64,000 nucleotides of DNA from Thermoanaerobaculia bacterium (GCA_947259195.1 CAMYLC010000098.1:497-64496); one strand, 5' to 3'; positions 13,900 through 35,819 are shown, counted from the first letter of the stretch. Notes: generated from the letters alone by a model not told the origin. A program made the numbers and translations.

Positions 13900-14739
13900 T
13901 CAAGAAACGAGCTGCAGGGTCATGCGGCGCACGACCTGTGCGAGGGCGAATCTTCGGTACTCGGCGGTCGAGCGCACGTCGTCGATGGGCCTGACGGCAT
14001 GAGCTGCCAGGTGACCGGCCAGGTCGGCAACATCGGCCTTTGCGGCCCGTCCCACCATCGCCTCTTCGACCTCCGTGAGCCGCAAGGGAATCTCGGCCAC
14101 GCTGCCTGCAGCCAGCCGATACTCGGTGATCAGGTCGTCACTGACGCTGGCCAAAAGGGCCACCACAACCTTGCTGATGGCCTGTGCTTCCCGAGTCCCG
14201 ACCTTGCGGAAGAACTGCGTCGCGCCTTGCGGTGGTCTGGGTAGCTGTACCCAACCGATGATCTCGCCGGGGCCGAGCGCTGTTTGTCGATAGCCGACAT
14301 GAAAGTCCCGGTAGGGCACTGTGCGCTTCCCCTCGGGACCCACCAGGACGATCTGTGCGTCCAGCACCAGAAGCACGGGTAGGGAATCTCCGGCTGGGCT
14401 GGCGTTGGCCATGTTGCCACCGAGGCTGGCGCGGTTCTGGATCTGCCAACCGCCGATTTTCGAGGCCGCTTCTGCCAACGCTGGGAAGCTCTGCCGCACA
14501 TCTGGGGAGTCGCGGATCTCGGAGAAGGCCGTGACAGCGCCGATCTCCAGGGTCTCACCGCGCCATCGAAAACCACGCAACTCCGAGACGCGCTGTAGGT
14601 CGAGGACCCCTGGCAGGTCGAGACGGTCTTCCGGCTCACTTACCATCAGATCGGTGCAGCCCGCCAGTGGTCGCAGATCCGGATGCTCCCCCAGACGCAG
14701 CAGGGTCTCCTCTAGTGATCTCGGAGCAAAGGCCTTCAC
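13900..14739 (-). CDS. Mo-hydroxylase FAD-binding (medium) subunit, CoxM/XdhB/YgfM type
   Basis: GTG start (14737-14739) in a GTGA overlap with the 2Fe-2S gene stop. LAGCTDLMV, IQNRASLGGNMANASPAGD and the C-terminal STAEYRR motif are typical of FAD_binding_5/CO_deh_flav_C. The upstream part of the 387-aa ORF is junk. Confidence 0.85.
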   Translation of the reverse strand: MKAFAPRSLEETLLRLGEHPDLRPLAGCTDLMVSEPEDRLDLPGVLDLQRVSELRGFRWRGETLEIGAVTAFSEIRDSPDVRQSFPALAEAASKIGGWQIQNRASLGGNMANASPAGDSLPVLLVLDAQIVLVGPEGKRTVPYRDFHVGYRQTALGPGEIIGWVQLPRPPQGATQFFRKVGTREAQAISKVVVALLASVSDDLITEYRLAAGSVAEIPLRLTEVEEAMVGRAAKADVADLAGHLAAHAVRPIDDVRSTAEYRRFALAQVVRRMTLQLVS

Positions 14740-15191
14740 TTGTCCCCCGCTCCGCGGTCGAAGGCTCTGTGGATGCCTTCGTAGCCGGTGCACCGACAGA
14801 GATTCCCAGCCAGGGCCACCTGCACCTCTCGGCGGGTGGGACGGGGGTTGTCGCGCAGCAGCGCCAAGGCCGTGACGATGATGCCAGGGGTGCAAGCACC
14901 GCATTGCACTCCACCGTCGTTGACGAAGCCTGCGAGAAAGGCTCGGGCCTCGGCGGCTGCGAGACCTTCCACCGTCTCGATCGTCGCCGCCTCGCATTGG
15001 ATCAGGGGAACCAGGCAGGAGAGCACTGGCTCGCCATTCATGAGCACTGTGCAAGCACCGCACTCACCCTCGCCACAGCCCTCCTTGGTGCCGATGAGAT
15101 CGAGCTCGTCTCGGAGGACGTCCAGGAGGCGAGCCATGGGATGGCCCTCGACGGCCACAGCCTTGCCGTTGATGACGATCTCGCTCTTCAT
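14736..15191 (-). CDS. Mo-hydroxylase [2Fe-2S] small subunit (CoxS/XdhC type)
   Basis: CGEGECGACTV and QCGACTPG...CRCTGY cluster motifs. ATGA overlap with the large-subunit stop. Confidence 0.95.
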   Translation of the reverse strand: MKSEIVINGKAVAVEGHPMARLLDVLRDELDLIGTKEGCGEGECGACTVLMNGEPVLSCLVPLIQCEAATIETVEGLAAAEARAFLAGFVNDGGVQCGACTPGIIVTALALLRDNPRPTRREVQVALAGNLCRCTGYEGIHRAFDRGAGDK

Positions 15192-34398: not shown

Positions 34399-35819
34399 TT
34401 GCGCACCGCGACGGCCTCCTTGACATGGTCGATGATCTGCAGCGAGATCTCGGTCACGATCTGTTCCAACTCTCCTTCGGTCAACTCCATAATAAGACCG
34501 TCGACGGCGTCACCGATCATCGCTTCCACGGTGGCGTGGCCCTCCTCGCTCGACAGCGTCGCCGCCAGGGTATCAGCGAAGGCGTTGAAGACGACCTGCC
34601 CGACGGTAACCACGAGGGGCTTGAGTACAGCATCCGGCAACGGCACGAGCCGCAGGGCATCGGCACTTTCCACGGCCTGCTCGAGGTTGGTGTTCAGGAA
34701 GCCCCGCGCCTGCTCCCTGACCGCCTCGCTGGTCAGCGCCTCCCGTACCTGAGTGGCCAGCTGGTGGCTCAGTGCCTCGCGGTGAGTCGCGGCCACAGAG
34801 TGGATGATCTTCTGATGGGTCCCGTCACGGATCTCGGACTGGGTCTCGTTGAGGATGCGCAGGGACACCATGTCCGAGATCTCTTCGCTGATGATGTTGG
34901 CAAAGTACTTGACCGCACGGCTGATGACGTCGTCGCCCACTTTCGAGTACTCGCTCTGGTGCAGGCGAATGTAGATGGAAGCGACGCGAAACAGGCGGAA
35001 GAGCCGGAACTGTCTGAGTGGGATGATCCCCAGCAGGTCGTACCAGTGGAATATCGGGTACAGAAACCAGGTGGCGTAGGTCCCTCGGCGAATGGAGAGA
35101 AACCAACCAATGAAGAAATCCGCCGCGAAGATCAACAGGAAGGGAAGATCAATCTTCCAGAAGTTGTCGGTGAGATTCCCACTCAGGTCGTAGGTCCGGT
35201 AGAAGTTGACCTCCATCAAGGGCGCCACTACGTCCTGAAAGAACTGAACCCTCCCGGGAAGCCTTTCGGGTACCGGTTGCAACGACCAGAAGTACTGCAA
35301 CCCCTCCTCGCCGGTCATACCCTGCATGACCGCCATTCCTCCAGGCTCGCCCCGGAGGTACAGCTGCATCTCTTTGAGCACGCGAATCAAGCTCTGACTC
35401 AGTCCCGAGCGCTCGAATGGGTTGTCTTCCACTATGGTCACGGCGAGAGTCCGTATCTCCGCAAGAGTCGGTTCGAGGTCGACAGGCGGGGCAGCCGCCG
35501 CCATCTGCTTGGTCAGGCGATCGACGAGCGCGAGGGCTTCCGAGGTGAGCGGTTCGGGCTCGATTCCCTTGACCGGATCATAGATCCGCGTGATCGCCGG
35601 AAAGCGTTGGAAGTAAAACGGCCGCAGCCAAAGGTAGGTCAAATCGAACAGGATGAGGCCGAGATTCACGATGGCCAGATAGACCATCAAGAAGTCCCAC
35701 GCCAGCCGCGGCGTGAGGCTCCTCACGAATGCCCGTAGTCGAGCGATCCTACTTTCCCTGCTCATAGCCAGAAGCAAGCGTAACGCAAAGCTACTTCGCC
35801 AGGCGTTGGTGGATTGCAC
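34341..35819 (-). CDS. membrane protein with a voltage-sensor-like S1-S4 module, no pore domain, and a ~200-aa helical cytoplasmic tail
   Basis: Hydrophobic helices at residues ~40-66, 223-243 and 249-267, then the S4-like LRQFRLFRLFRVASIYIRL (nt 34962-35018) with Arg at every third position. GTG start at 35819; ATG 35765 is an alternative. Confidence 0.7.
   Translation of the reverse strand: MQSTNAWRSSFALRLLLAMSRESRIARLRAFVRSLTPRLAWDFLMVYLAIVNLGLILFDLTYLWLRPFYFQRFPAITRIYDPVKGIEPEPLTSEALALVDRLTKQMAAAAPPVDLEPTLAEIRTLAVTIVEDNPFERSGLSQSLIRVLKEMQLYLRGEPGGMAVMQGMTGEEGLQYFWSLQPVPERLPGRVQFFQDVVAPLMEVNFYRTYDLSGNLTDNFWKIDLPFLLIFAADFFIGWFLSIRRGTYATWFLYPIFHWYDLLGIIPLRQFRLFRLFRVASIYIRLHQSEYSKVGDDVISRAVKYFANIISEEISDMVSLRILNETQSEIRDGTHQKIIHSVAATHREALSHQLATQVREALTSEAVREQARGFLNTNLEQAVESADALRLVPLPDAVLKPLVVTVGQVVFNAFADTLAATLSSEEGHATVEAMIGDAVDGLIMELTEGELEQIVTEISLQIIDHVKEAVAVRKWAYPNAPPRSVFTKDLGS

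Follow-up and report, generated by a model that had tools for sequence, protein, structure and literature searches.

The 64,000-nucleotide stretch of DNA from a Thermoanaerobaculia bacterium analyzed here (GCA_947259195.1 CAMYLC010000098.1:497-64496, hereafter the window) carries an island of about 22 kb, at positions 13900-35819, whose genes probably specify a variant form of reductive urate (2,8-dioxopurine) degradation. In this variant, a carbamoyltransferase derived from aspartate carbamoyltransferase (a pseudo-ATCase) would stand in for YgeY, a pair of pyridoxal phosphate (PLP) enzymes would stand in for YgeX, and the reductase YgfK is present in a short form, here called mini-YgfK. Each step is assigned from homology, active-site residues, and gene context or co-occurrence in anchored samples of related loci. 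An earlier note on this DNA had read the island as an uncharacterized variant of the ygeW/ssnA/ygfK/xdhD-type purine-catabolic cluster, and its conservation in relatives bears this out. The description of the pathway in that note as poorly understood has been overtaken by its reconstitution in 2025 (Li et al., PMC12507026; Liu et al., bioRxiv 10.1101/2025.04.24.650524).

A gene map based on third-position GC and open reading frame (ORF) analysis agrees with the coordinates of the earlier note, and every gene that it listed was found at or near the place given for it. Family membership was tested against the curated cut-offs (in bits) of NCBIfam/TIGRFAM and against Pfam, and identities were taken relative to the proteins of the E. 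coli cluster. PLP1 and PLP2 are names given here to the two PLP-enzyme genes downstream of ssnA. The genes assigned to the variant pathway are as follows.

13900-14739, minus strand: FAD-binding subunit of a three-subunit xanthine dehydrogenase (XDH)/CoxLSM-type hydroxylase; best match XdhB, 174 bits, below the cut-off of 310
14736-15191, minus strand: 2Fe-2S small subunit of the same hydroxylase; pucE 161 and XdhC 145 bits, both below cut-off; 42% identity to E. coli XdhC
15188-17491, minus strand: molybdopterin large subunit (CoxL-like) of the same hydroxylase; pucD 488 bits, below 784
17488-18921, minus strand: HyuA-type D-hydantoinase/dihydropyrimidinase; TIGR02033 550 bits, above 393; 38% identity to E. 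coli HyuA
19011-21644, plus strand: fused 2Fe-2S and molybdopterin enzyme with no FAD domain; TIGR03311 919 bits, above 830; TIGR03313 (XdhD) 236 bits, below 1102
21641-22864, plus strand: SsnA-family amidohydrolase; 286 bits, below 444, and 262 bits, below 455; 32% identity to E. coli SsnA
22881-24371, plus strand: PLP1, fold-type-II PLP enzyme of 496 aa; PF00291 33.9 bits against a cut-off of 35
24403-25842, plus strand: PLP2, PLP enzyme of 479 aa with an N-terminal Cys-rich segment; PF00291 134 bits
28880-29821, minus strand: carbamate kinase (YqeA/ArcC type); NF009007 421 bits, above 266; TIGR00746 380 bits, above 358; 46% identity to E. coli YqeA
30118-31071, plus strand: pseudo-ATCase, ATCase-derived carbamoyltransferase; TIGR00670 251 bits, above 237; NF002032 225 bits, below 263
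31079-32290, minus strand: YgeW knotted carbamoyltransferase; NF005538 618 bits, above 453; TIGR03316 592 bits, above 500; 59% identity to E. coli YgeW
32287-34344, minus strand: mini-YgfK, made up of the YgfK N-terminal domain and a C-terminal 2x[4Fe-4S] domain

The proposed pathway and its core enzymes

The known pathway has been reconstituted, and experiments demonstrate its reactions only for enzymes from E. coli, C. sporogenes, and C. difficile. In the first step, XdhD-YgfM (E. coli) or XdhAC/DOPDH (C. sporogenes) dehydroxylates urate, and the product, 2,8-dioxopurine, is reduced by YgfK, or by UacX in C. difficile. Ring opening by SsnA yields ureidomethyl-hydantoin, which HyuA converts to 2,3-diureidopropionate; YgeW turns one ureido group into carbamoyl phosphate, from which YqeA makes ATP, YgeY hydrolyzes the other, and YgeX converts 2,3-diaminopropionate to pyruvate (Li et al., 2025; Liu et al., 2025). 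A commentary on the 2025 work portrays the pathway as confined to certain anaerobes that live chiefly in the gut, and names as open questions which ureido group is removed first and how stereochemistry is handled.

In the variant proposed for the window, the three-subunit, FAD-containing XDH-like enzyme would convert hypoxanthine or xanthine to urate, the fused FAD-less FeS/Mo enzyme would take the 6-oxo group off urate to give 2,8-dioxopurine, and mini-YgfK would reduce the ring with electrons from an external donor such as ferredoxin or the Mo enzymes. SsnA would open the pyrimidine ring to form ureidomethyl-hydantoin, and HyuA would open the hydantoin to form 2,3-diureidopropionate. Both ureido groups would then leave by phosphorolysis. 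YgeW would act on one of them and the pseudo-ATCase on its counterpart, for which the alpha (2-) ureido group is the most plausible choice; from the resulting pair of carbamoyl phosphates, carbamate kinase could make as many as two ATP per urate, and PLP1/PLP2 would convert 2,3-diaminopropionate to pyruvate and ammonia. Entry into this route is reductive, with urate dehydroxylated and then reduced, and the ring hydroxylation that the earlier note had placed at the entry would apply only to the accessory three-subunit enzyme. The decarbamoylation coupled to ATP formation via carbamoyl phosphate that the note had also proposed stands, as does the remainder of its scheme. The most specific form of the proposal is that both ureido groups are harvested as carbamoyl phosphate, the 3-ureido group by YgeW and the 2-ureido group by the pseudo-ATCase, doubling the ATP to two per urate, and that the PLP enzymes form a two-enzyme terminal module. 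We hold this form tentatively, and put it somewhat short of an even chance.

Among the core enzymes, YgeW retains the STRT, HPTQ, and HCLP motifs. The HyuA reading frame is open to position 19005, and its profile match begins at residue 49, so that the ATG at 18921 is its likely start. SsnA aligns end to end with E. coli SsnA and keeps every metal ligand together with the family motifs (including HHxSP, HxHxAED, and GTDG); close to its C-terminus about 31 residues are deleted, and its start overlaps the stop of the fused Mo-enzyme gene.

The YgfK homolog aligns to E. coli YgfK only over residues 5-429 (38% identity) and 904-998 (32%), with the segment from 430 to 903 missing. Its TIGR03315 score of 410 bits is below the cut-off of 835 and comes from profile positions 4-417 of 1012; Fer4 matches lie at residues 500-590, there is a weak PreA match, and a PDB sequence search with mini-YgfK returned no match. 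The FAD/NAD(P)H part of YgfK (pyridine-nucleotide oxidoreductase, GltD-like) has been assigned to the segment that is missing here (Li et al., 2025, PMC12507026; Liu et al., 2025), and the N-terminal part, which resembles dihydropyrimidine dehydrogenase, has an FMN site in a structural model (Li et al., 2025, PMC12507026). With no NADPH/FAD module, mini-YgfK must therefore draw its electrons from an external donor. At least 20 of the related loci, spread over several phyla, carry this same short form. The earlier note had placed a truncated YgfK homolog at 32287-34398; homology and truncation both hold, and the start is moved to the TTG at 34344, the most likely one, which overlaps the upstream stop.

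The fused Mo enzyme was taken in the earlier note for an XdhD-type protein and is instead a TIGR03311 member that falls far below the XdhD cut-off. The XdhD-specific insertion carrying Glu606 is absent from it, and the Glu606 criterion that Li et al. use for XdhD is inapplicable, as that residue lies within the missing insertion. Aligned to bovine XDH, the enzyme keeps the equivalents of Glu802, Arg880, Phe914, and Glu1261 and has Thr at the position of Ala1078, a replacement listed as a DOPDH trait (Liu et al., 2025, bioRxiv 10.1101/2025.04.24.650524); the alignment is ambiguous in the loop that holds the F1009V signature of DOPDH, which is thus not scorable. Its nearest solved structures are D. 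gigas MOP (aldehyde oxidoreductase) and then nicotinate dehydrogenase. Liu et al. (2025, bioRxiv 10.1101/2025.04.24.650524) placed DOPDH nearest to the nicotinate dehydrogenases, and the appearance of nicotinate dehydrogenase among the top PDB sequence matches agrees with this placement. We propose this protein as a candidate urate to 2,8-dioxopurine reductase of the DOPDH/XdhAC type.

The complete three-subunit CoxLSM-type hydroxylase recognized in the earlier note is present, with FAD, 2Fe-2S, and molybdopterin subunits at 13900-17491. Its large subunit keeps the GGKE, SR, and GVGE positions, which are equivalent to Glu802, Arg880, and Glu1261 of bovine XDH, and the enzyme is a natural candidate for a xanthine/hypoxanthine dehydrogenase supplying urate. 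The FAD subunit begins with a GTG that overlaps the stop of the upstream gene. It had been assigned to the YgfM type, but scores only 50 bits against the TIGR03312 cut-off of 241 and is closer to XdhB, with 28% identity to the E. coli protein.

Over the whole set, the family scores support the earlier assignments in part: YgeW, carbamate kinase, the D-hydantoinase, and the fused Mo enzyme lie above curated cut-offs, and SsnA, YgfK, the FAD subunit, and the CoxL-like subunit lie below theirs. The absence of YgeX, YgeY, YqeB, YqeC, SelD, and a purine permease was correctly noted for the 64-kb window, in which no ygeX, ygeY, yqeB, yqeC, mocA, selD, or purine permease gene was found by tblastn with E. 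coli proteins or by family scans of the main likely-gene ORFs, the smaller ORFs being left out of the scans. Individual tblastn queries with E. coli YgeX, YgeY, YqeB, YqeC, MocA, XanQ, and UacT gave no match in the window (at E <= 1e-3 for YgeX and YgeY), no window protein had a family match to YgeX or YgeY, and YgeV is not in the window. In gut strains that carry the pathway, selD, yqeB, and yqeC are always present (Liu et al., 2025, bioRxiv 10.1101/2025.04.24.650524). This co-occurrence of selenium-trait genes is not seen in the window. Among about 166 related loci, only 3 gave a YqeB-like match, and, three exceptions aside, selD, yqeB, and yqeC are missing from those loci too.

Conservation of the island and the pseudo-ATCase

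By strand layout, the island falls into five transcription units, in keeping with the earlier count of at least four; the units are defined from strand layout and overlapping start and stop codons only. A minus-strand unit (13900-18921) holds hyuA and the genes for the molybdopterin large subunit, the 2Fe-2S subunit, and the FAD subunit, and a plus-strand unit (19011-25842) holds the genes for the fused 2Fe-2S/Mo enzyme, SsnA, PLP1, and PLP2. The interruption by unrelated genes at 25.9-28.8 kb that the earlier note described is confirmed and consists of NmrA, small ORFs, and a YdjM-like gene. Beyond 28.8 kb lie the carbamate kinase gene (minus strand), the pseudo-ATCase gene (plus strand), and a minus-strand unit of a voltage-sensor (S4)-like membrane protein, ygfK, and ygeW. 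Neighboring genes within a unit share 4 nt (GTGA/ATGA/TTGA), indicating translational coupling.

Conservation was followed in 80 genome loci anchored on PLP1 and 80 metagenome loci anchored on SsnA, onto which the proteins of the island and of the E. coli cluster were mapped by tblastn. Two loci are syntenic with the window from one end of the island to the other, NmrA, YdjM, and the S4-like protein included. They are an ENA contig (L001; ERZ25039600:contig_31939) and an uncultured Acidobacteriota metagenome-assembled genome (MAG; L004; MFD03804.bin.1.44, contig CAVQNG010000003.1), the closest species-representative genome, whose PLP1 is 89% identical; high-scoring segment identities are 60-94% for the island genes (73-94% for the pathway enzymes). 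NmrA, YdjM, DUF1648, and the S4-like protein are confined to these two loci and lie outside the conserved set. The core recurs across many phyla, so that the conservation of gene neighborhood expected of a true cluster is borne out, and the arrangement is not a chance juxtaposition. The order fused Mo enzyme-SsnA-PLP1-PLP2 is the norm in the SsnA clade of the window and is found in Acidobacteriota, Gemmatimonadota, Proteobacteria, and Myxococcota. A cluster of PLP1, PLP2, a PyrB-like gene, a distant YgeW-like gene, carbamate kinase, the fused Mo enzyme, and SsnA, in an order that varies by locus, is found in Chloroflexia and Actinomycetota, often with an F420 luciferase-like gene and a BMP/ABC transporter as well; the luciferase-like gene in these loci matches a remark by Li et al. 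on an F420 variant in Chloroflexota. Altogether, the taxa in which the variant occurs include Acidobacteriota, Chloroflexota, Actinomycetota, Gemmatimonadota, Myxococcota, and Alpha- and Betaproteobacteria.

Two observations on gene calling arose from these loci. Clustering of unassigned ORFs yielded antisense ORFs of the F420 luciferase-like gene, which were recognized as artefacts. At L001 8763-9986, the public gene calls miss ssnA and report a 267-aa antisense ORF instead, and surveys of called proteins would consequently score SsnA as absent there.

The most likely start codon of the pseudo-ATCase gene is the ATG at 30118, which follows a GGAGG. Its product keeps the carbamoyl-phosphate site (STRTR, R105, HPTQ, R167, LP), whereas the aspartate-site motifs of ATCase are lost, with Lys84 replaced by Tyr, RxQxxER replaced by KSRDER after an 8-residue insertion, and HPLP replaced by HSLP; these changes are consistent in 26 orthologs. 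The same criteria separate pseudo-ATCases from ATCases (Barba et al., 2013, PMC4016543; Shi et al., 2015). Compared with sequences from the supplementary alignment of Barba et al., the protein is 62% identical over 308 residues to A1SH59 of Nocardioides sp. JS614 and 33% identical to the UGTCase Rxyl_2847. A1SH59 belongs to pseudo-ATCase subgroup 2, is encoded beside ygeW, xdhABC, and hyuA, and has been left without an assigned function (Barba et al., 2013, PMC4016543). Judged by its sequence, the window gene is a member of this subgroup: the identity, the HSLP motif, the loss of RxQ, and the context all match. A housekeeping ATCase was also considered and is rejected on the motifs, the conserved non-pyrimidine context, and the 62% identity to a described pseudo-ATCase. 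The gene passes TIGR00670, and automated annotation will for this reason misname it an aspartate carbamoyltransferase. As a separate matter, the motif rows for pseudo-ATCase subgroups in Table 1 of Barba et al. (2013) do not seem to line up with the labels of their supplementary tree (HTLP for Rxyl_2847, HPLA for the marine group, HSLP for Nocardioides), and subgroup motifs are thus best taken from the sequences.

The distribution of this gene is complementary to that of ygeY. Pseudo-ATCase and YgeY occur in 26 and 9 of the PLP1-anchored loci and in 2 and 12 of the SsnA-anchored loci, respectively, and never together in the 166 loci; in the 44 loci with purine context, the exclusivity gives a Fisher p of 7e-4 with kinship ignored. 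Each of the two states is found within Acidobacteriota and within Actinomycetota. Carriers available in culture are Rhodoplanes azumiensis KCTC 15603 (L027), which has the YgeY type, and Nocardioides sp. JS614, which has the pseudo-ATCase type. The locus with the best SsnA match in the metagenome sample (L089) carries HyuA, the Mo enzyme, SsnA, PLP1, PLP2, YgeY, mini-YgfK, and YgeW, which is the set of the window with YgeY in place of the pseudo-ATCase. A precedent is provided by Rxyl_2847, the only characterized pseudo-ATCase, which converts allantoate and Pi to ureidoglycine and carbamoyl phosphate, adjoins a carbamate kinase, and replaces an amidohydrolase (Barba et al., 2013, PMC4016543). 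From the exclusivity, the intact carbamoyl-phosphate site, the remodeled aspartate site, and this precedent, we infer that the pseudo-ATCase replaces YgeY.

If it does, phosphorolysis would remove the second ureido group as well, yielding another carbamoyl phosphate and, potentially, another ATP. Enzymes of the ATCase branch act on alpha-N-carbamoyl amino acids and those of the ornithine carbamoyltransferase (OTCase) branch on distal amino groups; the latter branch includes the relatives of YgeW and a diaminopropionate transcarbamylase that makes albizziin (Shi et al., 2015). These specificities suggest that the substitution fits the order of Liu et al., in which YgeW would act on the 3-ureido group and YgeY, or here the pseudo-ATCase, on the 2-ureido group. 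The earlier note had listed the PyrB-like and PLP genes as extra components; they now appear to be the best candidates for the missing YgeY and YgeX and are the most widely conserved part of the variant.

The PLP pair and competing explanations

PLP1 scores marginally below the PF00291 cut-off, and its database relatives carry a precomputed PF00291 domain. Its family comprises more than 8000 clusters at 90% identity, with members 58-70% identical across phyla and no informative name in any source. The AlphaFold2 model of PLP1 has a pLDDT of 87.8, with CysK, CBS, and beta-cyanoalanine synthase as its best PDB folds; the core is flanked by N- and C-terminal extensions of 100 residues each. The model of PLP2 has a pLDDT of 90.7 and comes closest in fold to threonine synthase, CapA2, and serine racemase, with threonine deaminase also similar. 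Both folds are of beta-eliminating fold-type-II families, and the neighboring enzymes form or handle aminoacrylate-type intermediates from beta-substituted amino acids, a class that includes 2,3-diaminopropionate. Neither PLP1 nor PLP2 matches the NCBIfam diaminopropionate ammonia-lyase models at E <= 1e-5; the PLP2 profile matches E. coli YgeX weakly around the PLP-lysine region (hhalign, 69.6%, E 4e-5), and the corresponding value for PLP1 is 1%. The two had been described as unrelated PLP enzymes, but both fall in PF00291, the family used for YgeX by Li et al.

PLP2 adjoins PLP1 in 72 of the 82 PLP1-anchored loci. YgeX occurs in 4 of the 82 and in only one that also has PLP2; put the other way, a YgeX-like gene is present in 3 of the 13 loci without PLP2 versus 1 of the 69 with it. 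In one SsnA-bearing locus (L098), YgeX sits directly downstream of ssnA, in the slot taken by PLP1-PLP2 in sister loci. On the strength of the rarity of YgeX in loci with PLP2, the shared slot, the folds, and the weak PLP2 profile match, we propose that the PLP1/PLP2 pair replaces YgeX. Variants on this arrangement were also observed. In L149 and L158, a distant PLP1-like gene (31-46% identity) follows a 64-65% identical YgeW homolog, as ygeX follows ygeW in E. coli, and SsnA is nearer the E. coli type; in L142-L144 and L161, the PLP1-like gene lies elsewhere in the cluster. In L002, at 11497-13398, PLP2 forms a fusion protein with a 4HBT (hotdog thioesterase-like) domain, and some PLP2 relatives are named "PLP-dependent lyase/thiolase" by NCBI. 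This fusion and naming hint at CoA chemistry, which the proposed model does not explain. On the idea of PLP2 as a lyase/thiolase acting on a CoA substrate, its fold neighbors (threonine synthase, racemase, deaminase) offer nothing diagnostic.

The alternative that survives best, although we judge it unlikely, concerns these two proteins: they may form an independent amino-acid module (beta-replacement, racemase, or lyase/thiolase), with the diaminopropionate enzyme encoded elsewhere. About one quarter of the PLP1-anchored loci carry PLP1-PLP2 without a purine gene within 10 kb, L010 carries PLP1, PLP2, and YgeX together, neither protein is detectably of the YgeX family, and the lyase/thiolase naming and thioesterase-like fusion would fit such a module; the pair may accordingly have a broader or different role. 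Set against this, PLP1 lies directly downstream of ssnA in 19 of the 25 SsnA-anchored loci with enough sequence, and L098 has YgeX in that very slot. In the window, both genes are on the same strand as the Mo-enzyme and ssnA genes, with gaps of 16 and 31 nt, and the distant PLP1-like gene after ygeW in L149 and L158 also speaks for a link to the pathway.

Much less probable is that the pseudo-ATCase and carbamate kinase belong to an oxidative, allantoate-type route (urate to allantoin to allantoate to ureidoglycine and carbamoyl phosphate) like the one put forward for Rubrobacter xylanophilus (Barba et al., 2013, PMC4016543). HyuA would then be allantoinase-like, and YgeY would not be replaced at all. 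Phosphorolysis of allantoate by Rxyl_2847, whose gene adjoins carbamate kinase, speaks for this route, and the pseudo-ATCase and carbamate kinase of the window do form a divergent pair of their own apart from the other units. The window contains no uricase, HIU hydrolase, OHCU decarboxylase, or allantoinase, however, and HyuA reaches only 237 bits against the allantoinase cut-off of 358, yet passes the hydantoinase model. The pseudo-ATCase is also far closer to the subgroup 2 Nocardioides protein encoded beside ygeW/xdh/hyuA than to Rxyl_2847 (62% versus 33%), and it occurs in operons with PLP2, a YgeW-like gene, and carbamate kinase, where it is exclusive with YgeY.

Slightly less probable again is a reductive, Pyd-like route for pyrimidines or hydantoins, in which the YgfK N-terminal domain would act as dihydropyrimidine dehydrogenase, HyuA as dihydropyrimidinase, and the carbamoyltransferases on N-carbamoyl-beta-alanine or carbamoyl-aspartate. 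HyuA passes TIGR02033, a model named for dihydropyrimidinase, YgfK has its weak PreA match, and Shi et al. (2015) speculated on catabolic ATCases and beta-alanine transcarbamylases. Such a route leaves out two purine-type Mo enzymes with equivalents of Glu802, Arg880, and Glu1261, one of them a TIGR03311 member, as well as an SsnA with its family motif and a true YgeW, whose roles in urate degradation have been demonstrated elsewhere. Related loci, moreover, hold purine/nucleoside ABC/BMP transporters, adenine- or guanine-deaminase-like genes, and a UacT-like permease. Finally, the notion that generic paralogs (CoxL-type proteins, amidohydrolases, OTCase-family enzymes) lie near each other by chance with no shared pathway can draw on the four components below equivalog cut-offs and on the split of the island into five units interrupted at 25.9-28.8 kb, but is very improbable given four members above curated cut-offs, the synteny in L001 and L004, the recurrence of the core, in both of the separately anchored samples, at dozens of loci that span many phyla, and the translational coupling inside units.

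Several points nevertheless weigh against the variant urate pathway as preferred here. SsnA, YgfK, and the three-subunit enzyme score under their family cut-offs, and the identity of the pseudo-ATCase to the one characterized member of its class is only 33%. In addition to the missing selD, yqeB, and yqeC, the window has no purine or urate transporter and no regulator, and ygeX, ygeY, or a housekeeping pyrB may lie elsewhere in the genome, beyond the 64 kb. The purine-free PLP1-PLP2 loci and L010 count here as well, and two PLP enzymes would be needed for the work of one YgeX, perhaps as a racemase paired with an L-specific beta-eliminase acting on a D-configured intermediate, or as an obligate heteromer. 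The co-occurrence counts come from anchored, mostly MAG samples covering 10 kb on each side, with kinship ignored.

Surroundings of the island and comparison with known systems

One further gene of the island lies at its distal end.

34341-35819, minus strand: S4-like membrane protein of 492 aa, with an Arg-repeat helix LRQFRLFRLFRVASIYIRL and a long acidic C-terminal part

Only a weak DUF445 match was found for this protein. Its stop overlaps the mini-YgfK start by 4 nt, indicating translational coupling, and among the related loci mapped its homologs occur in L001 and L004 only. Its membership in the pathway is doubtful and it appears to be lineage-specific, as are NmrA and YdjM.

The G+C content is about 63% across the whole window, with the island uniform with its flanks. 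Horizontal acquisition is unsupported, as the GC matches the flanks and the family scans revealed no mobile-element gene (no tRNA scan was made). A scan of 17000-36500 found sigma-70 promoter-like sites at chance level (2 versus 2.5 expected) and 18 terminator-like sites versus 9.8 in shuffles, none of them at a boundary useful for defining units. The remainder of the window is of a housekeeping character (Feo, Kef-like, Lhr, RNase G, RodA, PBP2, MreBCD, RuvAB). Three other genes were noted in passing. A 620-aa ORF at 11493-13352 (plus strand) has good coding signal, no Pfam or NCBIfam match, and a partial relative only in L004. The gene at 39584-40624 (plus strand) matches a CLC chloride-channel profile of 346 positions only over the first 93 (1-93), has a TrkA_C domain after this match, and may be a truncated or rearranged channel gene. 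The 793-aa protein encoded at 48084-50465 (minus strand) has a Kdo/WaaP-type kinase domain as its sole recognizable part and is unrelated to the island.

Full-text searches of a literature library found no paper describing the substitutions proposed here. New in this work are the pseudo-ATCase as a candidate for YgeY, the PLP pair as a candidate for YgeX, the YgfK without an NADPH/FAD module, and the broad spread of the variant in environmental phyla. Testable assignments are thereby offered for a pseudo-ATCase subgroup that has been unassigned since 2013, for two conserved PLP families, and for a truncated YgfK. The variant also bears on the questions raised in the commentary, namely the order of ureido cleavage and the handling of stereochemistry. 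Were the proposal correct, an ATCase-branch enzyme in the slot of YgeY would favor the order of Liu et al., with YgeW acting on the 3-ureido group. The range of the pathway would then also take in soil phyla, which may run it without the selenium trait. All three substitutions are hidden by neighborhood scoring at the Pfam level. Li et al. scored PF00291 for YgeX and PF00185 for YgeW (PMC12507026), so that PLP1 and PLP2 are not separable from YgeX, nor the pseudo-ATCase from YgeW.

In comparison with the E. coli cluster (Li et al., 2025), the window shares homologs of YgeW, YqeA, HyuA, SsnA, and the ends of YgfK together with an XDH-family Mo enzyme, and the logic appears to be the same: a reduction, two ring openings, two ureido removals, and ATP via carbamoyl phosphate. 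Unlike the E. coli cluster, it lacks YgeX, YgeY, YqeB, YqeC, MocA, YgeV, and permeases and adds PLP1, PLP2, and the pseudo-ATCase. Its Mo enzyme is of the TIGR03311 type without the XdhD insertion, and its YgfK has no equivalent of residues 430-903. Like C. sporogenes (Liu et al., 2025), the window has an FAD-less fused FeS/Mo enzyme beside a separate XDH, and YgeW and carbamate kinase for ATP; in contrast to the gut carriers, selenium-trait genes are not in the window, and its host is an uncultured, soil-type environmental member of the Acidobacteriota rather than a gut anaerobe. With YgeX, the PLP pair shares the PF00291 fold-type-II superfamily, but two proteins are found for one, PLP1 being CysK/CBS-like and PLP2 threonine-synthase/serine-racemase-like.

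The closest parallels for the pseudo-ATCase lie among the proteins of Barba et al. (2013). A1SH59 shares with it the STRT, HPTQ, and HSLP motifs, the loss of RxQ, and a context beside ygeW/xdh/hyuA; 2,3-diureidopropionate was not known as a substrate in 2013. Like Rxyl_2847, the window enzyme belongs to the ATCase branch, is encoded beside a carbamate kinase gene in purine-catabolic surroundings, and appears to take the place of an amidohydrolase, whereas its proposed substrate (2,3-diureidopropionate or a mono-ureido derivative) is one carbon longer than allantoate. The mini-YgfK, for its part, has a parallel in the variable reductases of the known pathway. UacX of C. difficile has FMN and Fe-S and no FAD domain, and an F420/luciferase-like variant occurs in Chloroflexota (Li et al., 2025, PMC12507026); some of the related loci examined here carry a luciferase-like or UacX-like gene. 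In all of these, the variable step is the reductase that dearomatizes 2,8-dioxopurine, and UacX and mini-YgfK both do without an NAD(P)H/FAD module. Unlike UacX and the F420 variants, the window appears to present a third solution, a YgfK with its central module deleted.

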